Virus record (IMG/VR): IMGVR_UViG_2563366928_000010
Direction: 5' to 3' (one strand)
DNA: 21,036 nt
DNA from: a virus
Lineage: Duplodnaviria; Heunggongvirae; Uroviricota; Caudoviricetes
In this document: one piece after another, positions 7,133 through 18,022 of the stretch
How positions within the stretch are numbered: position 1 is the first letter of the stretch
How the letters are laid out: every line of letters begins with the position of its first letter
The notes under the pieces: generated by a model
The model's input: the letters and a program-made list of their open reading frames with translations, nothing else
Databases searched by the model: none
Told to the model about the DNA's origin: nothing
Program-made: the position numbers and the translations under genes

Positions 7133-7516
7133 TCAATTAGAATTATTAGCAACGATATCCATATCTAACCGGATATCTAATGCCATTAACATCCCTTCAA
7201 TTATGCCCTCAGCCTTCTGTAACCTTTTCCCGATATAACCATCCGAGCAGCAATGCTTACTTGCCAGTGACATGAATGTCATACCACATACATAATAATC
7301 TACTAATAAATCGTGTAAATCGCTGTTGTTCTTTTTCAGACGGGCCATGCACCCGCAAATGATCATCGCGTCATCGTCACAACATTGCGGGCGAGATTTT
7401 ACTTTTGAAGGAATTAATCCCTTAAAACCGGCAGCAATGGACGACCAGGTCACATCCTCATGATTATTTGCCGCCCATGCGCCCCAGCGTTCAAGAACCA
7501 TCTGAATATCACGCAT
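7133..7516 (-). CDS. Q: Late-gene antiterminator Q (phage 82 / DLP12 QuuD type)
   Basis: 127 aa from ATG at 7516: [60 protein letters not shown]... with Cys-rich Zn-binding region; matches recalled DLP12 YbcQ/QuuD. Confidence 0.8.
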
Positions 7517-8373
7517 TATTCGCACTCACCAACCAGATTGAGAATGACCGCTGCACCGTCGTCTTCCATGCATTCACCCTTACCACTTGCCAGAAACCAG
7601 CGGCACACCTCCACGGCTTCAGCGCGTGTCACCGGTTTGATGGTTGCCAGCAATTTTTCAAGGTAGCGCTCGCGGTCATATACCGATTCGTGATGCTCAG
7701 AGTAACCAAACTCATCGCCCTGTTCTTTAGTTGCAGTGTGGCGAACACTGTAGAGCCAGTCCCAGTAAACGAACTCGCGAACAACATCAGACAGCGTATA
7801 AGGCTCAGGCAGCACATCGCGATATCCATCAACAAATGCCCGACGCTGTTCATCAATTTCGTTCATGCGGCTGCCGCCAATGCTTCCGGCTTTTTTCTCT
7901 GCCGCAGTCCAGCCCCAGAGATGATCGTTGATAAATTTCTGGGAAGACCTGATGACCCGCTCTGCTTCCACATCTTCGAGCGCTGCTTCATAGCTACCAA
8001 ACGTAGCCCTGACTGATGCCGCTTTTTTGATGTTCTCCCGGGCGTTCCTGATAACCTGCGCAGGGTTATCCATGCCGATGATGCCGAACGCAACTTGGAA
8101 AGGTTCGTAACCATTCGCCAGCAGATAACGCGAATAGCGTTCCTGAGCCTCTTTTGGGGAAATTTTAATTTTCACCAGCGCAGCCTCAGCAGCATCCAGA
8201 TGTGCGGGTTCGTTCAGACGGATAACCTCCAGCACCCAAAGATAAGCATCAGTCTGCTTATGCCCGGTGATTCTCCGTTGCTCTGGCAGGGGCTTGATGT
8301 TTGCGAGGGCGGAGCTGTACGCTGCCGTCGGGATGGTGAATAGTGCTTTATGTTCGTTATTATCAGTACGCAT
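7516..8373 (-). CDS. Hypothetical phage protein, 285 aa, translationally coupled between primase and Q
   Basis: ATG at 8373 overlaps primase stop; stop overlaps Q start (TAATG); no family recognised by eye. Confidence 0.6.
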
Positions 8374-9341
8374 TACGCAACCGCCTTTTTCTTATGGAAA
8401 ACCAGCTCTCGAACCTGATCACCGTTCATGAGCATATTGTTGAAATCATCGTGATCCGGCCAGTACACGCTCACGCGCTGCAGGTCATTCTTTGCCATCA
8501 GATTGGCATGAGCACATTCGCAAGCCGCAGCCAGCCCGGTGGCGCTGTTCTCGTCACGGTCGGCAAAAATAATCAGGTGCAGAACACCAGCTGGTACGCG
8601 AAACTTTTTCATAAAGCCGCTGTTAATGGTTGCCCAGGTGTTCACGTTATAAATCTGGTGCGCTGACAGCGCTGTTTCGATGCCTTCGGCGATACCCAGA
8701 GTGCTGGCGACAGGAAACATGCGGATAGCTACAGAACGAGCGTGATCCAAATAGTTATCTTCCTGCAGGGATTTGAGGCGCTTTGCACTGCTACCGATAT
8801 CTGCTTTTTTATCACCATCAAGCAGAGTCTGGTGCAGATAGCACAACTCCCCTTTATCGTCCGTAGCAAGTGAATAAAGAGACTGGAACACACTCCCGTT
8901 GTGTCTCTGCCTGGCATTGAACCGGATCGCCTCAGCAGGAAGACTGAATATTCCACGAGAATTAAGATACGCTGCGCCGGATGTACCACGCAGTGCCTCC
9001 AGTTTTGAAAACTTGCTCAATACCCGTTTGCGTAAGCTGGTGGCGCTGCTGGTTACCGGGATTTTAACCCGTTGGTAATCATTACCGATCAGGCGGTCTA
9101 TTTCGGTACAAATCTCGTTAAATGGCTTCGCCTGTGTCAGGGTGACAAGTTTCATACCATCGCCACTACCACATACACAGATCCACGTTCCTGCACCGTC
9201 GCGGTCGTCAATTCGGAACTTGCCACGTGCACCGCATACCGGGCATTCACCCTTGAAGTGATTTTTTCCGGTTATCGGCGGCAGACCGAAGTGCTCTAAT
9301 ATTTCAGGCCAGCGGCCTTTCGCTGCATCTGCTGTTTTCAT
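8373..9341 (-). CDS. Phage DNA primase (Zn-ribbon + Toprim)
   Basis: N-terminal CPVCGARGKFRIDD...GTWICVCG zinc ribbon; Toprim motifs GIAEGIETALS and IIFADRDENS (DxD). Confidence 0.8.
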   Translation of the reverse strand: MKTADAAKGRWPEILEHFGLPPITGKNHFKGECPVCGARGKFRIDDRDGAGTWICVCGSGDGMKLVTLTQAKPFNEICTEIDRLIGNDYQRVKIPVTSSATSLRKRVLSKFSKLEALRGTSGAAYLNSRGIFSLPAEAIRFNARQRHNGSVFQSLYSLATDDKGELCYLHQTLLDGDKKADIGSSAKRLKSLQEDNYLDHARSVAIRMFPVASTLGIAEGIETALSAHQIYNVNTWATINSGFMKKFRVPAGVLHLIIFADRDENSATGLAAACECAHANLMAKNDLQRVSVYWPDHDDFNNMLMNGDQVRELVFHKKKAVA

Positions 9342-9342
9342 C

Positions 9343-11001
9343 TTACTGACTCAGATTGTTTATATTTTTCTGGAGTTGGTGCTTTGCCTGCATGATGCGC
9401 CAGGCCTCACTGCCTGCCGGTATCTCACGTCGTTCATCACGTTCCTGAGATAAATCAATCGTTGTTTGTGCGTTTTCAGTGACCTTCTGAACCCGCTGGT
9501 GGCCTTTGGCAAACCGGATCAGTTTGTGTCTGATGTAGTTATTTACCTCAGGGGTAATTTCCATCGGAAAGTTACTCAGTCCGTCAGGCCACTCACCGAA
9601 CTTTTCCCGGAAAGTGTGAGCACACCATCCGTCACTGACTGGACGCCCCAGCGAAGCACGCTGGCGCTGATAAAATTTGATCTGACTCCACCAGGACTGT
9701 TTCTCTGCCTTCGTCGACTGATGCTGATTTTTACCCAGCTTATTAAGTTTGCGGCTAGTGTCAGTATCAACGTCTTCACCTCGCAGCGGCTTGTGTCCAC
9801 ATTTCGGGCAAACATAGACGCCTGCTGGCTTCATGTAGTGGCATTGAGGGCATTCATGTGGCAGTTTTTCGGCCCGTTCCTCAACTGCCCGGCGCGCGCT
9901 TTCCTCCATGCCGTCAGACTTACCGGGAAGCTCGTCGTACTCGATTGAATCCGGATAACCCAAACGGTGCACGGTGCCGCTGTGATCGAAGATAAGGCAG
10001 GACTCTTTACCCGGTGCGGTGCGCAGCCCACGCCCGAGCGCCTGCAACCAGCGAATTTCGCTTTTTGTTGGCCTGGCGTAGATGATGCAACGAACGTCAC
10101 TATCGAATCCGGCTACCAGAACGCCCACACTAACGATGATTTTCGTTGCACCGGTTTCAAAGCGGTGAATGATGGTCTGGCGCTCATCTACCGGAGTGTC
10201 TGCGGTCATTACCTCAGCGTTAACACCCGCCAGGTTAAACTGGATTGTCAGGTAATTGGCGTGGGCTACGTTGACGCAGAAAGCGATGGTAGGTAGATCC
10301 CGACCATTCTCCAGCCAGTTCTGTACAATGTCGCCCACCAGCGTAGAGCCGCACATGATTTCAGCCAGCTGTGTTTCGTTGTAATCGCGGCCGTACTCAA
10401 GCGAAGATGTGGTTTTAACACCTTTCAGATCCGGCTTAGTTGGCGCGTAAAATTCGTATTTACTCAGATCGCCACGCTGGATTAACTCGCCGATGGTGGT
10501 CGGTTTAATCAGTCGGTCATAGTATTTGCCCAGGAACGGGGAAAACGGAGTACCCGACAGGCCAATCACCTTTACGCCTTTGCCGCGCAGACGTTCGATA
10601 TCCTTCAGGATGCGTTTTTTACGCAGGTGCGCTTCGTCGATAATCAGCAGATCGATATTTTCAGGAAAAACACGACGAATAAGCGTATCAGCGCTGGCAA
10701 TCTGAATTTTCCGGTCCGGATCGTAGTTCGGGTGATCCGCCCAGATATAACCGATTTCATCTCCAGGTAAACCATACTGCACGAACCGATTAGCCGTCTG
10801 ACCAATCAGGATGGTGTACGGAACACAGAACAGAGCGCGCATACCACGGCTGACAAAACCAGCAACTATGAAGGCTGCCAGACCCGTTTTACCGCTACCT
10901 GTTGGCGAATACACCATGAAGGTGTCGTTTGCCTTCCAGTAACGGCGCAACATGTTTAACGCCCGTTCCTGTGCAAAATTCGGCGTGATCGTCAGCTGCA
11001 T
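9343..11001 (-). CDS. Phage SF2 DEAH-box replicative helicase with C-terminal Zn ribbons
   Basis: Strong SD GGGGAGG + ATG at 11001; Walker A SPTGSGKT, Walker B LLIIDEAH, SGTP motif; C-terminal CPQCHY...CPKCGH. Confidence 0.85.
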   Translation of the reverse strand: MQLTITPNFAQERALNMLRRYWKANDTFMVYSPTGSGKTGLAAFIVAGFVSRGMRALFCVPYTILIGQTANRFVQYGLPGDEIGYIWADHPNYDPDRKIQIASADTLIRRVFPENIDLLIIDEAHLRKKRILKDIERLRGKGVKVIGLSGTPFSPFLGKYYDRLIKPTTIGELIQRGDLSKYEFYAPTKPDLKGVKTTSSLEYGRDYNETQLAEIMCGSTLVGDIVQNWLENGRDLPTIAFCVNVAHANYLTIQFNLAGVNAEVMTADTPVDERQTIIHRFETGATKIIVSVGVLVAGFDSDVRCIIYARPTKSEIRWLQALGRGLRTAPGKESCLIFDHSGTVHRLGYPDSIEYDELPGKSDGMEESARRAVEERAEKLPHECPQCHYMKPAGVYVCPKCGHKPLRGEDVDTDTSRKLNKLGKNQHQSTKAEKQSWWSQIKFYQRQRASLGRPVSDGWCAHTFREKFGEWPDGLSNFPMEITPEVNNYIRHKLIRFAKGHQRVQKVTENAQTTIDLSQERDERREIPAGSEAWRIMQAKHQLQKNINNLSQ

Positions 11002-11594
11002 TGTGCTGCCTCCCCATGGTTCAGCGGGAGGCGCCTGAAATGGTGACCGCGATGAGACTTTGTTCTTCCAGCAATAACAGCATAAACACTACCGTGATCA
11101 AACCCGGCACTAATTAGCGCCTTTTTCCCGCAAAAGGTTTGCTCTTCCCTGGTCGCAATATTTGTGGCGACAATCAGGCCCTTAAATTGTTTGTTGTTCG
11201 CCCCCTGAGAATTATTCAGCCCGGTGTGAATAGAATGCTGAATGTTTTCGCTATGGCTAACCCACTCCAGATTGGATGCATGGTTATTCAGCTTGTTGCC
11301 GTCCTTATGGTTCACTTCAGGGTGGTTGTAAGGGTTGCTGCAAAAAGCCAGCGCTACCAGACGGTGTACGGCAAAAGTTTGGCGATTACGTTTGTAGCTC
11401 AGGTTAACGGTTTTATATCCATCCCGGCGCACTCTTCCCTTGAGGAACACGCCACGAATTTGGCGAATAAAAAATTCCGATTCAGCAATTCGATTAACCC
11501 CACGGATGCGTCCCGCCGAGCTAACGAGGTAAGCATCACCATACGGAGCAACAGGAACCGGAAGCCATTTTTCACCATCAAAACTGTTAACCAT
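10992..11594 (-). CDS. HNH homing-type endonuclease (NUMOD4-like N-terminus + HNH_3-like core)
   Basis: Internal ATG at 11594 with GAGGTGA SD; GEKWLPVP...YLVSSAGRIRG and HRLVALAFCSNPYNHPEVNHKDGNKLNNHASNLEW motifs; 10 nt overlap with helicase start. Confidence 0.75.
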   Translation of the reverse strand: MVNSFDGEKWLPVPVAPYGDAYLVSSAGRIRGVNRIAESEFFIRQIRGVFLKGRVRRDGYKTVNLSYKRNRQTFAVHRLVALAFCSNPYNHPEVNHKDGNKLNNHASNLEWVSHSENIQHSIHTGLNNSQGANNKQFKGLIVATNIATREEQTFCGKKALISAGFDHGSVYAVIAGRTKSHRGHHFRRLPLNHGEAAQCS

Positions 11595-11612
11595 AAAATC
11601 ACCTCTGAACAT

Positions 11613-11852
11613 TTACATCTGGACGTCTAGGCGTCCGCACATCTTCTGGTATTTCCCCTTTACAGAGATCTACCTAACCTATGTACCCGTCTTCTTGGAA
11701 AAGCCTGTTCCAGCGCTTCGCGCTAAAAGATCAACACCGCCCCCTTTCCCCCATAAACATTTAGGGGGTGGCAAACACATCCAGACATATAGACGTCTAA
11801 ATATTTTTACCATTTTCAATCAGCCACCGGACACCTTTAAGCCCGGTACCAA
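11613..11852. promoter_or_regulatory. Structured intergenic region with two GACGTC-centred palindromes and a C5/G5 hairpin; candidate promoter/operator or origin region
   Basis: GGACGTCTAGGCGTCC at 11621-11636 and TAGACGTCTA at 11790-11799 flank GCCCCCTTTCCCCC...GGGGGTGGC (11738-11771). Confidence 0.3.
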
Positions 11853-12146
11853 TCAGGAGCGCGATTGCGTTCCTGCCAGGGGCGGCTGAGTTGTATACCC
11901 CTGTAAAGCTCTGCCCTGATTTCTCACAAACAAGCGGAGCCTTGTGTTTGCTTCGTGCCTTGCTCTGTTCTCCTTGCGGAATGAAACAGGCTCAGCGTCA
12001 AAAGTGATTTCGTATACCTCCGCATATTTCAGGGCGACCTTCCGTCTCAGTGACGGAGGCAGCCCCTGTAACTGCTGCTGAATCCACTCTTCGTCTGCCT
12101 GGCAGTACCTAGATGGCATCTCTGTCTGAACGTAATTCTGGGACAT
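11853..12146 (-). CDS. Hypothetical early protein (97 aa) in the cII-equivalent position
   Basis: ATG at 12146 with strong SD GGAGAGGTGA 9 nt upstream; no family recognised. Confidence 0.5.
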   Translation of the reverse strand: MSQNYVQTEMPSRYCQADEEWIQQQLQGLPPSLRRKVALKYAEVYEITFDAEPVSFRKENRARHEANTRLRLFVRNQGRALQGYTTQPPLAGTQSRS

Positions 12147-12360
12147 ACAAGCCCTTCACCTCTCCCGTGCGCGCTAAGCTTGGATGTGTATATGGAATGT
12201 TCGGATCCAGATGGCAGAGAATGGCAACATCCTCCGGAACGCCCCGCGTTTTCCACTTTCCAACTCCCTGACTACCACGAGGCCTTCCTTTCTTTGGGAA
12301 CCTGCGGCCAATAGCGGCATTGGTCTTAAATTGAGTTTTTAATATTTCATAAAGGGTCAT
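12109..12360 (-). CDS. Hypothetical basic protein (83 aa) in the cro-equivalent position, divergent from the repressor
   Basis: ATG at 12360 with GAGG SD 7 nt upstream; basic (GRRFPKKGRPRGS); overlaps the next ORF by 38 nt in another frame; no clear HTH seen by eye. Confidence 0.4.
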   Translation of the reverse strand: MTLYEILKTQFKTNAAIGRRFPKKGRPRGSQGVGKWKTRGVPEDVAILCHLDPNIPYTHPSLARTGEVKGLYVPELRSDRDAI

Positions 12361-12471
12361 TCTTTAGCCTCACACCGGATACTCTGTTATCCAAGAATGT
12401 TAAACGCGAGAATCCAAAGTATCAAGAAATTCTGTTACTTTAGTATCAGCAGCCATGAAAGGAGAAGAAAA
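12361..12471. promoter_or_regulatory. Divergent promoter/operator region (OR-like) between cro-position gene and repressor
   Basis: Repeated (A/G)GTATC(A/C) motifs at 12377-12382 (inverted), 12418-12425, 12442-12449; candidate minus-strand promoter -35 TTGATA (complement of 12420-12425), 17 bp spacer, -10 TAACAT (complement of 12397-12402). Confidence 0.45.
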
Positions 12472-13128
12472 ATGAAATCTTTAGGTGAACGCCTCATCAA
12501 CGCACGACAAAAAGCTGGGTTAACGCAAGATGCGTTGGCTAAAAAAGCAGGGGTCACCAGAGTTGCAATCAGTAAAGCCGAGCAAGGCCTTACAAAAAGT
12601 TTCAACGGTGACACCCTTTTTAAAGTCGCAGCTGCACTGCAGTGTTCACCGCAGTGGCTTCAGAACGGAGATGAAAAAGATAAGCATTGGGAAAATAATG
12701 TTAAGAGCTGCCCACAGAGAGACACAGCACACTCTTACCCTGTAATTAACTGGGTTCAGGCAGGATTATTCGCAACTGCTGGTGATGACTACAACATGTA
12801 TGATCAGGATAATTGGAGGCATTCTGTAAAATACGCTGGTGAGAGGGGGTTCTGGCTGGAAGTGCACGGAGACTCAATGACTTCGCCCGTAGGAATAACA
12901 TTTCCTGAAGGAATGTCGATCCTTGTCAACCCAGATAAAGAAGTTTTTTCAGGGTGTTACGTCATCGCCAGAAAAAAATCTACCCATGAAGCAACATTCA
13001 AAAAATATATTTCTGAAATGGGAAAGGCGTTTCTAAAGCCCCTTAATCCACAATATCCAATCATAGAAATGGACAATGATTGCGAAATAGTAGGTGTTGT
13101 GGTTGATGCCAGGTGGGATATTTTCTGA
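12472..13128 (+). CDS. cI: CI-like prophage repressor (N-terminal HTH_XRE + C-terminal S24 LexA-like autopeptidase)
   Basis: AAAGGAG SD + ATG at 12472; HTH LGERLINARQKAGLTQDALAKKAGVTRVAISKAE; S24 catalytic motifs GDSM and downstream Lys (ATFKKY). Confidence 0.85.
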   Translation: MKSLGERLINARQKAGLTQDALAKKAGVTRVAISKAEQGLTKSFNGDTLFKVAAALQCSPQWLQNGDEKDKHWENNVKSCPQRDTAHSYPVINWVQAGLFATAGDDYNMYDQDNWRHSVKYAGERGFWLEVHGDSMTSPVGITFPEGMSILVNPDKEVFSGCYVIARKKSTHEATFKKYISEMGKAFLKPLNPQYPIIEMDNDCEIVGVVVDARWDIF

Positions 13129-13224
13129 TCAGACACAAAAAGAAACCAAAGTATCAAAAATCACTTGCCACACCTTGATACCTTAGTTACCATGAAACAA
13201 AGTTCGTAACTGAGGTATCATCTC
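13129..13224. promoter_or_regulatory. OL-like operator region downstream of repressor gene
   Basis: Same 12-mer CCAAAGTATCAA as in the OR region (13146-13157 vs 12414-12425), inverted copy TTGATACC 13175-13182, GGTATCAT 13214-13221. Confidence 0.45.
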
Positions 13225-13641
13225 ATGATCAATAAAGCTACAACTCTTGACTGTCTCGAAGAACTGAAAAACCTCGGCAGCCTCATTACACTAATAGCAA
13301 AAGCAACACCAGATGCTACGCTCTCTAGCGATATAGAGTCATGCGCAGGACTGGCATGGGATATGACAAATAGCATATCCAGAAAGCTATCGTCAGCAAT
13401 GCTTTTACAGAACAAAAATTCTGCAATCAACAACCGTCTTCGCACCCAACGCGAAGACTGCGGCTTAACAACAGCCGAACTCGCCAGACTGCTCGATCTC
13501 GATGAAGAAATTATCATCCAGTGGGAGAGCGGAGAGTACGAACCAACCATCAGCATGCTTATCCCTCTGGCTAATGTTCTTGGCTGTGATCCAATGTGGT
13601 TACTGACTGGTGCTTATAAACAAAATCAGGAGGAAGCATAA
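13225..13641 (+). CDS. HTH_XRE-domain protein (138 aa) with novel N-terminal half
   Basis: GAGGT SD 8 nt upstream; C-terminal RLRTQREDCGLTTAELARLLDLDEEIIIQWESGEYEPTISMLIPLANVLGCDPMWLLTG is a Cro/CI-type HTH. Confidence 0.7.
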   Translation: MINKATTLDCLEELKNLGSLITLIAKATPDATLSSDIESCAGLAWDMTNSISRKLSSAMLLQNKNSAINNRLRTQREDCGLTTAELARLLDLDEEIIIQWESGEYEPTISMLIPLANVLGCDPMWLLTGAYKQNQEEA

Positions 13642-13642
13642 G

Positions 13643-13834
13643 ATGAAAATGTTCAAAGGCCTCACCAACGAACCGGAAACAGCTTTTCATCACATTGCCG
13701 TACTGCTTGAAGCGGGGTTAATCATTTCGGCTTCCGGTGATGAAGAATGTGATGAACTTTCGGATGATATCTTTTTACTGGCACAACAATACGCCAGAAG
13801 CGCATGCGATGCATTTAAGGAGCAAAGAACATGA
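13643..13834 (+). CDS. Small acidic hypothetical protein (63 aa)
   Basis: ATG 2 nt after upstream stop with AGGAGGAAG SD; acidic patch SGDEECDELSDD. Confidence 0.55.
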   Translation: MKMFKGLTNEPETAFHHIAVLLEAGLIISASGDEECDELSDDIFLLAQQYARSACDAFKEQRT

Positions 13835-14022
13835 TAACTCCATTAAATATTCTTGAGGAAGTGGCAGCACAAATAAAAGAGAATACATCCATGCTTGAAT
13901 TTATATTTAAGAATTCGCCTGATTCAGGAGAGACAGACGATTATTTATGTTGCCTCATTCGCTCCATGAATAAAACCTGTGAAATGGCTTACGCGTATAT
14001 CGACACACTGCGCAACGAATAA
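13831..14022 (+). CDS. Small acidic hypothetical protein (63 aa)
   Basis: ATGA start/stop overlap with upstream gene, AAGGAG SD 7 nt upstream. Confidence 0.55.
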   Translation: MITPLNILEEVAAQIKENTSMLEFIFKNSPDSGETDDYLCCLIRSMNKTCEMAYAYIDTLRNE

Positions 14023-14206
14023 AGAAAACTCAATAAACAATCACCCATAAAAACATAACGGTCTCTGGTCGGGAATTTCCACAACCTGAAAATGGTGGTG
14101 ATGCATGAAAAACAGAAGTGCTTATAAAACCGCATTATTAATGGCTAATGCAGGATACTGGTCAGTTGCAATACTGTTTCTCAGGAAAGCATACGGGAAA
14201 TAACAA

Positions 14207-14566
14207 ATGACACATGAACCCATTAATACATATCGTCGCCGTATAGCTGTTGCGGCACTCCATCGAATAAAACGTAAAACAGGTGGTAATCTGCTTATTG
14301 TTGACCTTCCGGATGGGAACATTACGACCATAGAAATAACTGAACAGTTTATAAACCAGTTGCTGTTACGCTTCGAAGGTATTACCCGTGGTGAATTGGG
14401 CCGGGTGGAGGGTGAAACCGAAATCCACACTGCATACCAGAATGCTATCGGGATTAATCAACATACTGAATACCTGACTGAAACCGGAAAGTTAATTATA
14501 GACAACCTTTTTCAAGAGGTTATTGATTACGCGAAAGAAAAATATATCAGCGGAGGAATTAACTGA
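14207..14566 (+). CDS. Hypothetical protein (119 aa)
   Basis: ORF with coupled downstream gene; weak SD; no family recognised. Confidence 0.5.
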   Translation: MTHEPINTYRRRIAVAALHRIKRKTGGNLLIVDLPDGNITTIEITEQFINQLLLRFEGITRGELGRVEGETEIHTAYQNAIGINQHTEYLTETGKLIIDNLFQEVIDYAKEKYISGGIN

Positions 14567-14781
14567 TGGCTAATTTATCCCCTGTATCTGTTGTGCACGA
14601 AAAAGTGCAGATCGTTATGACAATTGAAAATGGCCAAGTCACAGGTGTCTGCAAAGTCCGCGATGGCGAGCTGATTGCCAGCATGGATACATTCATACGG
14701 CTGGCAGAAAGAGCGGGGTATCAGATAACAGCACCTGCTCAGGAGGAAACCGGTGGCATTAACAGCAACACGCATTCCTGA
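14566..14781 (+). CDS. Hypothetical protein (71 aa)
   Basis: ATGA overlap with upstream stop; GGAGGAA SD 7 nt upstream. Confidence 0.55.
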   Translation: MANLSPVSVVHEKVQIVMTIENGQVTGVCKVRDGELIASMDTFIRLAERAGYQITAPAQEETGGINSNTHS

Positions 14782-14967
14782 GCGGATCCACCGGCAGGCA
14801 TTGCAGGTCCTGTTGTTGTACCGATGCCGACGGATATTTCCGCATCGGATACAGCGCACCGGATATCTCAGTCTGAAGGTTAACCGTCGCTGGCGGCTGT
14901 TATCGAAAGACGACGGCCGGAACTGGGAAGTAATGAGTCATGAACGTTATTCGGGAGAAATAAAGAA

Positions 14968-15360
14968 ATGATCGACAACCGCACCGCCAGCGCCATTGAC
15001 CAGGCATTACAGAAACATGATACACCCGTCGGCCCGTTATTTTTTGTAACACGCCACGGAAGAACAAAAAAATGCCTCAGCCGAAAAACGGCAATTCGTT
15101 ACCTGGCATTCTTTATGACCACCCGCGCTTTTGAACGTTCAGGATTCCGACAACGCTATCCTGACAAGCGTTTTATCTTCAACAGGAATGAGATATGGAA
15201 ACGTGGAGAATCAACCACAGAGTATACCCGCGCACACCAGCGAACAATCAGACGACTGCGCAGACTCATCGCCAGGAAACAGTATACAGAAAAATGGTTC
15301 AGAAAATATGACACATGGAGCGCCGGATATTACGAACTGATGGCAACAAAACCATTCTGA
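14968..15360 (+). CDS. Hypothetical basic protein (130 aa)
   Basis: GGGAGA SD 9 nt upstream; Arg/Lys-rich C-terminal region (RTIRRLRRLIARKQYTEKWFRKY). Confidence 0.55.
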   Translation: MIDNRTASAIDQALQKHDTPVGPLFFVTRHGRTKKCLSRKTAIRYLAFFMTTRAFERSGFRQRYPDKRFIFNRNEIWKRGESTTEYTRAHQRTIRRLRRLIARKQYTEKWFRKYDTWSAGYYELMATKPF

Positions 15361-15420
15361 CGTAAACGAAATTAACCATGACGCAATTAAATAAGGCAAG
15401 CCGAATACATCAGGAGGACC

Positions 15421-15609
15421 ATGAACATTTATTTCAGAATAGTTATATCACTGGCAATTATCACATGTATTTACGGATTAATCGTTCCGGCCCTCATATC
15501 AATGAAGGATACGGTAGCAGTGATTTCTGGCTTTGCTCTGGCGTGTCTGACCCCGCCCTGCATTTATGCCATTTATAAGGGTCTTTCTTTTTCTAAGGAT
15601 AAAAGATGA
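15421..15609 (+). CDS. Small membrane protein with two predicted TM helices (62 aa)
   Basis: AGGAGG SD; hydrophobic segments RIVISLAIITCIYGLIVPALI and AVISGFALACLTPPCIYAIY; stop overlaps start of downstream SPFH gene (ATGA). Confidence 0.55.
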   Translation: MNIYFRIVISLAIITCIYGLIVPALISMKDTVAVISGFALACLTPPCIYAIYKGLSFSKDKR

Positions 15610-16433
15610 AAAAATTACTTTTTGCTTTAGCCCTTGTTCTGCCGACCATTGGCCTTGTCGGTTGCGATCGCGTTGAGCCTGGTAATGTGGGCATCAAAGT
15701 AAACAAACTGGGCGACGATAAAGGCGTCGGTGAAGTGGTCGGTGTTGGGCGCTACTGGACGGGATGGAACACTGAGGTTTACATCTTCCCGACCTTTAAG
15801 CAGATGAAGACCTACGATGATCCATTCAGTTTCCAGATGAGTGACGGTACAACCATCGGCTATCACATCGGCGTGGCCTACAAAGTTGATCCATCCAAAG
15901 TTACCACAGTCTTTCAGACCTACCGCAAAGGCGTGGACGACATTACCGACACCGACCTGCGCCAGAAGATAGCCGACGCACTCAACCGACTGGCCAGCAA
16001 AATGACCACCGACAAATTTATCGACGGCGGCAAGTCTGAGCTGCTGGATGCAGCTCTTAAAGACATTCAGGAAGAAATGACGCCCATCGGTATTCAGGTA
16101 ATGAGCCTCTCATATGTGGGTAAGCCGGAGTACCCGCCTACTGTTATCGACAGCATTAATGCCAAAGTCACGGCGAACCAGAAAACCCTGCAACGCGAGC
16201 AGGAAGTAAAACAGCGCGAAGCGGAAGCCAACATGTTGCGCGCGGAAGCTGCCGGACAGGCAGATGTGATTCGCACAAAAGCCCAGGCCGAAGCCGATGC
16301 TATTCGTTTACGCGGTGAAGCTCTGCGCCAGAACCCCGGTGTTATGGAGCTGGAAGCCATCAACAAGTGGAACGGTACACTGCCGCAATACATGACCAGC
16401 GGTGCCAACACACCATTTATTCAGGTTAAGTAA
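15606..16433 (+). CDS. SPFH/Band-7 (HflK/C, stomatin-like) domain lipoprotein, 275 aa
   Basis: AAGGA SD; lipoprotein signal MKKLLFALALVLPTIGLVGC with Asp at +2; SPFH core and Ala/Glu/Arg-rich coiled-coil tail QREQEVKQREAEANMLRAEAAGQADVIRTKAQAEADAIRLRGEAL. Confidence 0.8.
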   Translation: MKKLLFALALVLPTIGLVGCDRVEPGNVGIKVNKLGDDKGVGEVVGVGRYWTGWNTEVYIFPTFKQMKTYDDPFSFQMSDGTTIGYHIGVAYKVDPSKVTTVFQTYRKGVDDITDTDLRQKIADALNRLASKMTTDKFIDGGKSELLDAALKDIQEEMTPIGIQVMSLSYVGKPEYPPTVIDSINAKVTANQKTLQREQEVKQREAEANMLRAEAAGQADVIRTKAQAEADAIRLRGEALRQNPGVMELEAINKWNGTLPQYMTSGANTPFIQVK

Positions 16434-16476
16434 TACATATGCCCGGTATTACACGCCGGGCTGTCTGGAGATAAAA

Positions 16477-17226
16477 ATGAATATTGTAACCATCAACAAC
16501 AAACAGTTTCCGGTAATCGAATATCGCGGTCAGCGTGTTGTGACATTTGCAATAATTGATGACGTCCACCAGCGCCCGGAAGGTACCGCCCGTGCTGCGT
16601 TTAACCGCAACCGTTCTCACTTTATCGAAGGGGTGGATTTTCTTGAAATGACTGCGGACGTAATACGTACGGAGTCACTTTCTGATGCCTTTGCCGCGCG
16701 AACTGCCAAAGGGATCATTCTTTTCGAGTCTGGTTACCTGATGTTGACGAAGCCTTTTAACGATGCTCTTGCATGGCAGGTTCAGCGCGAACTGGTTAAC
16801 AGCTATTTCCGAACTCACGCGCCGCTGACGGAAATGGAGATGATCGCTGCAATGGCCGCCGATGCCGTTCGCCAGCAGAAGCGCCTGAGTCATGTTGAAG
16901 AGAAGATCGAAACGGTCACCAAAGCTGTGGAGAACATCAAACGCGGCACAATGCGCACCGGATATGTCGGTTACCGCCAGGTGGTAGCCAAAAGCGGAAT
17001 GAGTGACGCCAAGTGTCGGAATCTGGTCAACGCCTACCACATCCCTACCGACACGCACGAATTTATGACTCCGGACGGTCTGTTGTCTCGCAGGGCTGTC
17101 GTCGAGCTTGAGACATTTATGGCGGCGTTCCACCAAATGATGTCAGAGGCTGAACCACGCGGCACACGCTGGTATCACCCGAAGATGGGGCTTTTCCAGG
17201 TAATCGGATGGGAGGATAAAGCATGA
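16477..17226 (+). CDS. ORF6N-domain-like protein (putative antirepressor/DNA-binding regulator), 249 aa
   Basis: GGAGAT SD + ATG 16477; N-terminus PVIEYRGQRVVTF...NRNRSHFIEGVDFLEMT...LFESGYLMLTKPFNDALAWQVQRELVNSYFR resembles recalled ORF6N consensus. Confidence 0.6.
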   Translation: MNIVTINNKQFPVIEYRGQRVVTFAIIDDVHQRPEGTARAAFNRNRSHFIEGVDFLEMTADVIRTESLSDAFAARTAKGIILFESGYLMLTKPFNDALAWQVQRELVNSYFRTHAPLTEMEMIAAMAADAVRQQKRLSHVEEKIETVTKAVENIKRGTMRTGYVGYRQVVAKSGMSDAKCRNLVNAYHIPTDTHEFMTPDGLLSRRAVVELETFMAAFHQMMSEAEPRGTRWYHPKMGLFQVIGWEDKA

Positions 17227-17792
17227 TCATCCAGTCAAAACTTATTCGCGCCGCTCTGGTGTGCGCTGCTAAAAACGACGTTCGTTATTACCTGAACGGT
17301 CTTCACATCACGCCAAAACATATTGAGGCAACCAATGGTTTCGTAGCACTGCGCATGACTCACGGCATCCGGACGAAGAAAAACATCATTGTCCAGTTCG
17401 AAGGTGGCGTCCCGGCCAAAGCCGAAACGACAGAGCTGATTTTAAGTAAAGAGCCGATCGCTGTTCATCGCGACCAGTTTCAGCGCCGGCTGTCCATTAC
17501 CGGCATTAAATTAGTGGACGGTTGTTTTCCGGATTTGGAACGCATCATTTCGAAAAAATTTGACCTCTGTACACACCCGGTGATCCAGGCGGGTTACCTG
17601 AGTTATCCAGAGAAGATGTTTGGTCGTGAGCGTAAATTTATTCCCGTCCAGTTACGTCCCTCCGGTGACGGGCAAGCGGTCAGAATTCAGTTTGATTCCA
17701 TCATCAACTCAATGTATGGCAATCCTGAATTTGTTGTGATGCCTTGTCGTGATCATGGCGATTTCAACGTGGCTCAGGAGCATCCGGAATGA
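17223..17792 (+). CDS. Truncated DNA polymerase III beta sliding-clamp (DnaN)-like protein, 189 aa
   Basis: Strong SD GGAGGA 6 nt upstream; DVRYYLNGLHI...ATNGFVALRM, KLVDGCFPD and C-terminal FVVMPCR align to recalled E. coli DnaN (DVRYYLNGMLFE...ATDGHRLAV, KLVDGRFPDY, YVVMPMRL). Confidence 0.7.
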   Translation: MIIQSKLIRAALVCAAKNDVRYYLNGLHITPKHIEATNGFVALRMTHGIRTKKNIIVQFEGGVPAKAETTELILSKEPIAVHRDQFQRRLSITGIKLVDGCFPDLERIISKKFDLCTHPVIQAGYLSYPEKMFGRERKFIPVQLRPSGDGQAVRIQFDSIINSMYGNPEFVVMPCRDHGDFNVAQEHPE

Positions 17793-18022
17793 AAATCGAA
17801 TACCAGGACTACGGAGCCGTAGCGAACATCGTGATCACCTGCACCGTGTTCGAATTTCGTAAACATAACCGGGTGGTGGATGCTGCATTGCTTTGCACGC
17901 CGGACGTTATTGCAACTCACAGTGGTGTGTTTTTCATGAAGTCGGTTTTATCCGGTAAAACCCGCGATATGTTGCGGGCATATAAAACAGCACAGGGAGA
18001 GGTCGGGCGTGAGCGAGATTGA
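17789..18022 (+). CDS. Hypothetical protein (77 aa)
   Basis: ATGA overlap with upstream stop; no family recognised. Confidence 0.5.
   Translation: MKIEYQDYGAVANIVITCTVFEFRKHNRVVDAALLCTPDVIATHSGVFFMKSVLSGKTRDMLRAYKTAQGEVGRERD

Follow-up and report, generated by a model that had tools for sequence, protein, structure and literature searches.

The non-coding gap upstream of the replication genes in IMGVR_UViG_2563366928_000010, a 21,036-nt stretch of Escherichia coli prophage DNA (hereafter the window, to whose full length all coordinates refer), raises the question of what its palindromes are and which protein reads them. The window is 100% identical to NZ_OZ546925.1 and represents a prophage of the Fels-1/phi467 kind. 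Its gap separates a gene for a 97-amino-acid (97-aa) protein, situated at the position of cII, from genes for a NUMOD4/HNH endonuclease, an SF2 helicase and a primase, and is read here on the minus strand, i.e. in the direction of early-right transcription. Judged by its sequence, the gap is a modular control element with flanking modules that look like operators of host repressors, of the MetJ type in the window, which suggests that the phage may read the amino-acid status of its host directly upstream of its replication genes.

Met-box arrays at two positions of the gap

MetJ is an S-adenosylmethionine (SAM)-dependent repressor whose operators are tandem arrays of at least two met boxes with the consensus AGACGTCT (PMC4239095). 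Two sites in the gap, S1 and S2 (Table 1), show this arrangement of tandem, in-phase 8-bp boxes, each with four boxes in succession. Both match 23/32 positions of a tandem (AGACGTCT)x4, the individual boxes scoring 5, 6, 8 and 4 of 8 in S1 and 5, 7, 6 and 5 of 8 in S2. A scan of the whole window recovered S1 and S2 as the sole outliers, with 23/32 each over four boxes versus at most 18 elsewhere, and 18-19/24 over three boxes versus 15. The best two boxes of S1 (14/16) constitute the top score of the 21-kb window, and those of S2 reach 13/16. The corresponding arrays of the E. coli K-12 host score 23/32 (metB/metJ: AGAAGTTT/AGATGTCC/AGATGTAT/TGACGTCC) and 22/32 (metF: TTACATCT/GGACGTCT/AAACGGAT/AGATGTGC), with 12/16 for the best two boxes. 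Furthermore, positions 11612-11629 of the window are identical to the K-12 metF operator at 18/18 bases, including those that depart from the consensus. The predicted sites S1 and S2 are hence indistinguishable from host MetJ operators in sequence quality.

This resemblance was also examined with a panel of motifs that were not of our own choosing, namely all 16 E. coli factor consensus motifs given in PMC2811016, against which the two site zones of 21 representative elements from the window and its relatives were scored. MetJ ranked first for the window's type of element and TrpR first (12-14/16) for a type with GTAC-containing palindromes, which is described below. None of 1948 background zones of coding DNA reached the top scores of the panel, including the 14/16 against the published MetJ consensus.

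The original prediction, made from the window alone, had named four palindromic features in the gap, all of which are present where it placed them. Two of these, the near-palindrome of 16 bp and the perfect 10-mer, lie inside S2 and S1, respectively. The prediction had treated them as paired sites, and the comparison with relatives shows that they are a genuine pair, occupying two fixed positions that flank a conserved core in every relative. All three occurrences of the exact 8-mer TAGACGTC in the 21-kb window lie within the two sites. The C5...G5 inverted repeat, in which the first G run pairs with the upstream C run, is restricted to the window's element type (the window and locus L151), and other types lack it. 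Two further perfect inverted repeats had gone unlisted, ACCGG...CCGGT at 11826-11847 and TGGAA...TTCCA at 11696-11712. With arms of at least 5 nt and loops of at most 12 nt, the gap holds six perfect inverted repeats; 500 shuffles that preserve dinucleotides give 2.4 ± 1.8, and 5.6% of them reach six. The enrichment of palindromes within the single sequence is thus marginal, and the strong evidence against chance is comparative. The gap had been given as 11613-11852. Since the RefSeq start of the endonuclease gene is its second ATG, at window 11594 and preceded by a good Shine-Dalgarno sequence, the non-coding stretch is slightly longer and spans 11595-11852.

The array of S2 ends 19 nt upstream of the endonuclease start codon, and begins 14 nt downstream of the -10 hexamer of a plus-strand sigma-70-like sequence, which is a consensus match only (9/12 positions) and opposes early-right transcription; nothing comparable was seen at S1. 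In two other element types, S2 of some relatives is overlapped by comparably weak antisense promoter matches. Predictions for the window's gap yielded neither a sense-strand promoter nor an intrinsic terminator. The idea that the sites serve an activator-dependent promoter for the replication operon finds no support, as no sigma-70-type promoter faces the replication genes here, nor consistently in 104 relatives.

Table 1. Features of the gap and neighboring genes in the window
Feature	Coordinates	Strand	Description
S2	11613-11644	read on plus	four 8-bp-phased met boxes TTACATCT/GGACGTCT/AGGCGTCC/GCACATCT
S1	11775-11806	read on plus	four 8-bp-phased met boxes ACACATCC/AGACATAT/AGACGTCT/AAATATTT
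Near-palindrome, 16 bp	11621-11636		GGACGTCTAGGCGTCC; 5-bp arms, 6-nt spacer, one T/G mismatch pair if taken as a 16-mer; inside S2
Perfect 10-mer palindrome	11790-11799		TAGACGTCTA; inside S1
C5...G5 inverted repeat	11748-11768		CCCCC...GGGGG
Sigma-70-like match	11571-11599	plus	TTCACC-17-TAAAAT
Conserved core	11662-11703	minus	CTTTTCCAAGAAGACGGGTACATAGGTTAGGTAGATCTCTGT; one GATC
Hairpin B	11712-11724		mini-hairpin; AGCGC-GAA-GCGCT on minus, AGCGC-TTC-GCGCT on plus
G tract	11740-11752	minus	GGGGGAAAGGGGG; window version of the family motif GGGGGG-TAA-GGGGGG
Hairpin A	11825-11848	minus	UACCGGGC-UUAAAGGU-GUCCGGUG; starts 4 nt past the stop codon of the 97-aa gene
SF2 helicase gene	9343-11001	minus	longest open reading frame; RefSeq start 10953
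NUMOD4/HNH endonuclease gene	10992-11594	minus	in a variable slot between element and helicase; inside the swapped cassette 11015-11832
97-aa gene	11853-12146	minus	cII position; phrog_852, without Pfam family; always precedes the element
83-aa gene	12109-12360	minus	cro position

A conserved element with exchangeable flanking modules

In a first alignment with six relatives, the gap resolved into a common central segment, two positions with differing palindromes and a hairpin right after the stop codon of the upstream gene. Relatives were then collected with three independent anchors. The first, the 17-mer CATNGGTTANGTAGATC from the core, yielded 96 true loci when viral contigs were scanned with it, every one of which has a homolog of the 97-aa protein upstream (down to 52% identity) and a helicase downstream (down to 65%). 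The 97-aa protein alone, used as second anchor, retrieved 22 genomes (Pantoea, Trabulsiella, Kosakonia, Citrobacter, Enterobacter, Serratia, Erwinia, Yersinia and others), of which 21 contain the element, with the exact 17-mer in 15 and a variant of it in six. The G tract as third anchor added 44 further distinct elements. More than 140 distinct loci thereby share a single order, namely the phrog_852 gene, hairpin A, S1, a two-run G tract, the core (..TAGATC..), S2, an optional gene and the SF2 helicase gene, and the window holds every part of it in the family order. Isolated phages with the element include phi467, Fels-1, Fostie and Klebsiella ST512-KPC3phi13.5, with a variant form in the Stx2a phage TL-2011c. 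The region 10900-12400 is matched in 252/5426 complete E. coli genomes, and the family extends to Salmonella, Klebsiella, Citrobacter, Pantoea, Serratia, Yersinia and Erwinia. The original prediction's view of the region as a cis-element directly upstream of the helicase and primase genes is thus borne out by its conservation, and the gap is best explained as a rare, MetJ-type version of a modular non-coding control element that is common in temperate phages of Enterobacterales.

A two-run G tract is found in 72/72 distinct elements examined, in the form GGGGGGTAAGGGGGG in 42 of them, and the sense strand of this segment contains 40% G and 12% C. The core 17-mer persists where the flanking proteins are down to 52-65% identity. 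RNAalifold, run on 24 diverse sequences from the G tract to the core, returned no conserved secondary structure, which indicates that what is conserved here is the primary sequence, and this pattern fits a recognition site at the DNA level. Between these two parts the window has a mini-hairpin, hairpin B, with a covarying stem (AGCGC/GCGCT in the window, AGTGC/GCACT in phi467 and Fels-1, AGCCC/GGGCT in L150) and a fixed GAA loop; it is missing from the commonest element type (that of L006). Several other accounts of the gap were considered and set aside. A search of Rfam 15 (E <= 10) gave no match to a known RNA family within 11595-11852, and the three chance-level hits in 10500-13500 all lie outside the gap. 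One large structured RNA is disfavored as single-sequence folds consist mostly of local hairpins and RNAalifold found no consensus across G tract and core. A small coding gene is at odds with the variation of frame and start of the open reading frames by element type and with 1-nt indels between close relatives, and an invertible promoter segment with the constant orientation of the core across all loci.

The helicase-primase pair next to the element is the "Eru1" replication module of Stx phages (SF2 helicase eru1A, toprim eru1B), and Eru1 phages are stated to lack homologs of N, CII and CIII (PMC8044961, PMC8951638). The element might accordingly be regarded as the origin of this replicon, with the core and G tract loading the helicase via a phage protein, or with a G-rich transcript forming an RNA-DNA hybrid that primes synthesis, and the repressor sites being accessory. 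The constant location directly upstream of the replication genes speaks for this, as do the conservation of core and G tract, which concerns the primary sequence without a conserved RNA fold and exceeds that of the flanking proteins, the 40% G/12% C skew of the non-template strand with a canonical quadruplex motif in 48/72 distinct elements, and the GATC conserved in the core. Host amino-acid repressors also serve as architectural factors elsewhere, e.g. ArgR at ColE1 cer. An origin of Eru1 phages has yet to be described, the two papers covering the genes and mentioning neither an origin nor an intergenic element (PMC8044961, PMC8951638). However, the element has no conserved iterons: the sole phased repeats are the met boxes, relatives have single palindromes in their place, and the core is without internal repeats. 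A conserved AT-rich stretch for unwinding is also absent: positions 11800-11824 are 80% A+T, but this is specific to the window's type, and other types are GC-rich there. The window itself is without a canonical quadruplex motif. Moreover, extra genes (HNH or a 124-aa gene) are tolerated between element and helicase, and no stand-alone copy of the element was seen on plasmids or satellites; the five matching plasmid records, looked at as candidates for origin-only copies and judged by the element and not by gene context, all hold the whole element. On balance we regard an origin as an unlikely account of the element.

Hairpin A, directly downstream of the 97-aa gene, has an invariant loop (UUAAAGG) on a variable stem. 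In 35 distinct stems, 94.7% of cells pair compared to 75% when shuffled, a value that 0/500 shuffles reach, although the inner four pairs were required when instances were collected. Compensatory changes affect 5/7 pairs, and G·U pairs make up about 15% of cells. Since these would be A·C mismatches on the opposite strand, hairpin A is an RNA hairpin of the sense transcript. It is a separate, RNA-level part of the element, its conserved loop presumably recognized by a protein. Many relatives have two copies, but no second copy was found in the window or in a complete 47-kb related prophage. Hairpin A (loop AAAGG) accompanies a CTTTTCC in the core in 81/82 elements, and 14/17 elements without the hairpin also lack the motif. 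With a complementarity of 5 nt between the two, the loop might conceivably contact the core at the RNA level, with the reservation that the co-occurrence reflects few independent lineages. In L170, an element with Met-type sites, a hairpin with the same loop, GGTGATC-TTAAAGG-GATCACC, stands in the place of the core and none follows the upstream gene, so that the UUAAAGG-loop hairpin looks like a movable module.

These properties recall antitermination of the N/nut kind, in which hairpin A would be the analog of boxB for a basic helix of the 97-aa protein and early-right transcription would pass signals in the gap, a possibility that is compatible with control by a host repressor. Such a role would account for the covarying stem, the invariant loop and the sense-strand G·U pairs, and for the placement of the hairpin directly downstream of a gene with an invariant arginine-rich stretch; the lack of an N homolog in Eru1 phages (PMC8044961) and the precedent of an N-like gene in the right operon of mEp021 (PMC11893012) are likewise in line with it. 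As an account of the element it is nevertheless quite improbable. It leaves S1, S2, the G tract and the core unexplained, and the third element type described below has no hairpin A. The window and the complete related prophage have a single copy of the hairpin, the window's gap is without a predicted intrinsic terminator, and there is no conserved boxA, the boxA-like CGCTCCTGA being part of the variable 3' end of the coding sequence.

The flanking modules of the element fall into distinct types. Most relatives have GTACT-N8-AGTAC palindromes with CTAG at both the S1 and S2 positions, which resemble the TrpR operator; the same form is found upstream of trpL, aroH and trpR in K-12, as read from the genome. 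The arms of these Trp-type sites are near-invariant (about 2 bits per position) and their center is free. In the window the best TrpR-like site matches 9/14 arm positions, which falls short of a TrpR operator. Among the first 101 distinct elements, 66 are of the Trp type at both positions, seven are of the Met type at both, and one (L147) combines Trp at S1 with Met at S2. In 12 elements one side could be classified with the other remaining below threshold, and in 15, mostly of a third type, neither could. The independent set of 44 elements contains the same two types, including L170, in which AGCCGTCTAAACGTCT matches 15/16 of the published MetJ consensus. Mixed elements such as L147, and L063 with an unclassified S1 and a Trp-type S2, argue for independent protein sites. 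They also led us to reject a long-range pairing of mutually complementary S1 and S2 that would close a 170-nt domain, since both combine different types. The window's own element type is found in 7/5426 complete E. coli genomes.

TL-2011c and numerous Stx2a phages represent the third type, in which the G tract and the core are retained but the flanking modules match no factor of the 16-motif panel. The arms of its S2 covary like an RNA hairpin, from ATAGTT/AACTAT to ATGGTT/AACCAT, with G·U intermediates. TL-2011c (L209 1780-1990), L012, L038 and L109 retain GGGGGTAAGGGGG and CATAGGTTAGGTAGATC and are devoid of hairpin A and CTTTTCC; their flanks consist of TTAGTTGC-N19-GCAACTAA and ATAGTT-N23-AACTAT around GAAAT(A/G)ATT motifs. 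In L173, the S1 position upstream of the G tract is occupied by GTGGACAAAAACTATCCAC, containing CTATCCACG, which agrees with 7/9 positions of the DnaA-box consensus and may represent a further site type.

Candidate readers of the sites and a possible role for host repressors

A natural exchange between two prophages bears on the identity of the reader. The window and a prophage of E. coli 1296KP (L152) are 99.5% identical over 7514-11014 and 99.0% over 11833-17809, stretches that encompass the entire left early region and the repressor gene as well as the genes for the 97-aa and 83-aa proteins, helicase, primase and 285-aa protein. Between them lies a swapped segment, 11015-11832, with the HNH gene and Met-type sites in the window versus no gene and Trp-type sites in 1296KP. 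The helicases of the two are 100% identical over 450 aa, and the helicases in a second lineage of the Met type form a clade of their own. The helicase or primase as reader was hence rejected, the proteins being identical and the sites different. The original prediction had proposed dimer sites for the 97-aa and 83-aa early proteins. This is contradicted by the identity of both proteins (WP_001553022.1, WP_001553024.1) in Combat2C1, a prophage with Trp-type sites and hence with a completely different site type. CI/Cro operators can also be set aside, as the palindromes between cI and cro are unrelated and Trp-type sites co-occur with repressors of 28-100% identity to that of the window. No phage-encoded homolog of MetJ, Arc or TrpR was detected in the window with Pfam or PHROGs. 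That the site type switches without any change in the early and replication proteins, which are 99-100% identical in a prophage with the other type, makes an early phage protein a very unlikely reader, and a host repressor is probably the economical answer.

The junctions of this cassette, which in the window comprises the HNH gene, S2, the core and S1, between the window and 1296KP fall within the loop of hairpin A on the left (TTAAAGGT, 11833-11840) and at the start of the helicase on the right; the conserved loop seems to have served as a short recombination anchor.

The sites could instead be structural palindromes, i.e. RNA or DNA hairpins or cruciforms, or sites of some phage protein, with a coincidental likeness to MetJ and TrpR operators. 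The third element type, with long covarying hairpin-like modules at both positions and sense-strand G·U intermediates, provides a precedent for this, and the S1 of the phi467 type sits at the tip of an imperfect palindrome of about 48 nt. Furthermore, the late genes and Q differ between the window and 1296KP, which leaves some room for a phage-encoded reader outside the shared regions. We nonetheless hold this account to be unlikely, because a chance likeness would have to have arisen twice independently, with two host repressors that belong to one functional class. The sites score at least as high as genuine host operators, at levels reached by 0/1948 background zones, the 18/18 identity to metF extends to deviations from the consensus, and the met boxes are 8-bp-phased direct arrays, i.e. 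more than palindromes. In the Trp type the arms are invariant in sequence across genera and do not covary, their mismatches showing no consistent strand bias, and contiguous palindromes such as TAGACGTCTA are unable to form a useful hairpin.

If host repressors are the readers, the S1 and S2 arrays would be bound by host MetJ with its corepressor SAM, and the counterparts in relatives by TrpR with tryptophan. A repressor on both flanks of the G tract and core would then gate events at this junction, in the simplest form as a roadblock or operator for transcription that crosses it. Early-right read-through into the HNH, helicase, primase and Q genes might be gated in this way and/or the weak opposing promoter just outside S2 might be controlled. 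In this way, the methionine/SAM status of the host would govern how far the replication genes are expressed or the core is accessible. We put forward such control of transcription or access by MetJ·SAM as a tentative proposal, in which we place somewhat less than even confidence. A broader generalization is possible, though more speculative: phages with the Eru1 module may share a replication-control element, possibly an origin, with swappable operator cassettes (for MetJ/SAM here and TrpR/tryptophan in most relatives), through which host metabolite sensors would decide on its engagement.

Several considerations weigh against these proposals. The resemblance to MetJ and TrpR operators was first spotted on inspection of the sequences, before the panel test and the scan of the whole window were run, and the assignment of these proteins as readers is inferred from the likeness of the sites. 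The third element type falls outside the panel, so that a rule of host repressors does not cover the whole family. The spacing of S1 and S2 varies from 147 to 158 bp among relatives and hence provides no evidence for phased looping. The logic of a roadblock is uncertain, given that repression at plentiful SAM or tryptophan would damp the replication genes in well-fed cells. Finally, the rare element of the window might be a partly non-functional recombinant; this doubt is countered by a 91%-diverged copy in a second phage background (L151) and by the further Met-type lineages.

A different use of the same repressors would be that of operator decoys, in which hundreds of strong operator copies, present once the phage genome is amplified, would titrate scarce MetJ or TrpR, and the biosynthesis of methionine/SAM or tryptophan would be derepressed to the benefit of phage production. 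Sites that match or beat host operators, with two arrays per genome, would suit such a role; both repressors control supply pathways, and it would explain why the sites of either are used interchangeably. However, a decoy could be placed anywhere, yet the modules strictly flank the core in all lineages, which points to a local function and renders decoys very improbable.

The involvement of host repressors in phage switches is known, with LexA as the classic case. The searchable literature, which leaves out most subscription journals, yielded neither a description of MetJ or TrpR operators in the control region of a phage nor one of two types of host-repressor sites swapped as cassettes at fixed positions around a conserved core. 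If MetJ and TrpR bind these sites, there would be a testable link from the methionine/SAM or tryptophan status of the host to the replication of a very common prophage family. A variant of the element also lies upstream of the replication genes in Eru1-type Stx2a phages, which have been reported from O103:H25 and O104:H4 outbreak strains. Given that the origin and replication control of Stx2a Eru1 phages are undescribed, the element marks where to look in those phages.

Comparison with known systems and the wider gene context

The MetJ operators of E. coli at metF and metB/metJ and the arrays described here share tandem in-phase 8-bp boxes, three to four per array, and an equal match to the consensus. 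Unlike in the host, two prophage arrays about 160 bp apart flank a conserved core between a regulatory-region gene and the replication genes, no clear promoter of a downstream gene overlaps S1 or S2, and binding is predicted from sequence. The likeness to the TrpR operators of trpEDCBA, aroH and trpR is confined to the relatives, whose 18-bp palindromes match 11-14/14 arm positions, the same range as the K-12 operators; these relatives differ from the host in having two sites per element with no recognizable promoter overlapped, and the window has none.

The region between cII and O of lambda contains the promoter of the antisense oop RNA, which is reportedly repressed by host LexA. The element has the same place on the map, with the cII-position gene on one side and the replication genes on the other, and it shares sites that look like operators of a host repressor and a possible opposing promoter. 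It differs in that MetJ or TrpR would take the place of LexA, in the absence of sequence similarity, in an antisense promoter that is a 9/12 match, and in that no short RNA ended by a terminator is evident. The lambda origin lies inside O, unlike the element of the window, which is placed between genes. With the lambda nut site the element has in common an RNA hairpin of the early-right transcript with invariant loop and covarying stem. The loop of hairpin A is however 7-8 nt long and not a GNRA-like pentaloop, and there is no boxA, N homolog or left-operon copy. The Eru1 region of Stx phages (PMC8044961, PMC8951638) has the same helicase/toprim module, and TL-2011c has a version of the element that includes the G tract and the core 17-mer. 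The differences are that the flanks in TL-2011c are of the third type and that the third gene of the window encodes a 285-aa phrog_6204 protein and not DUF1367.

The helicase gene is followed on the minus strand by genes for a P4-like toprim primase, a 285-aa protein without known function and Q, in that order. After the 285-aa gene, a 130-aa Phage_antitermQ protein (7133-7525) in the window corresponds to a 271-aa "antitermination protein" (L152 23970-24785) in 1296KP, suggestive of another module exchange. The longest open reading frame of the helicase (start 11001; RefSeq start 10953) shares 10 nt with the end of the HNH gene. The slot between element and helicase, filled by HNH here, has a gene for a 122-124-aa phrog_1347 protein (L004/L005 1714-2088) in phi467, Fels-1 and many E. 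coli prophages, and is empty in the commonest element type (L006). A LexA-family repressor is encoded on the plus strand of the window, and the intergenic region between it and the cro-position gene, 12361-12471, has operator-like palindromes, e.g. GGATACTCTGTTATCC (12377-12392), unrelated to S1 and S2.

Two invariant features mark the 97-aa family upstream of the element, the basic stretch R-K/Q-E-N-R-A-R-H-E-A-N-x-R-L and the tail QGYT..PPLAG. An AlphaFold2 model of the window's protein has three helices at low confidence (mean pLDDT 60), and the protein is without a Pfam family, a PDB sequence match or a fold match. Distant homologs occur in Vibrio phages; downstream of the gene these have a strong terminator, then three CGACAGAACCTGTCG-like repeats and a replication protein of another kind (L159 2700-3130).

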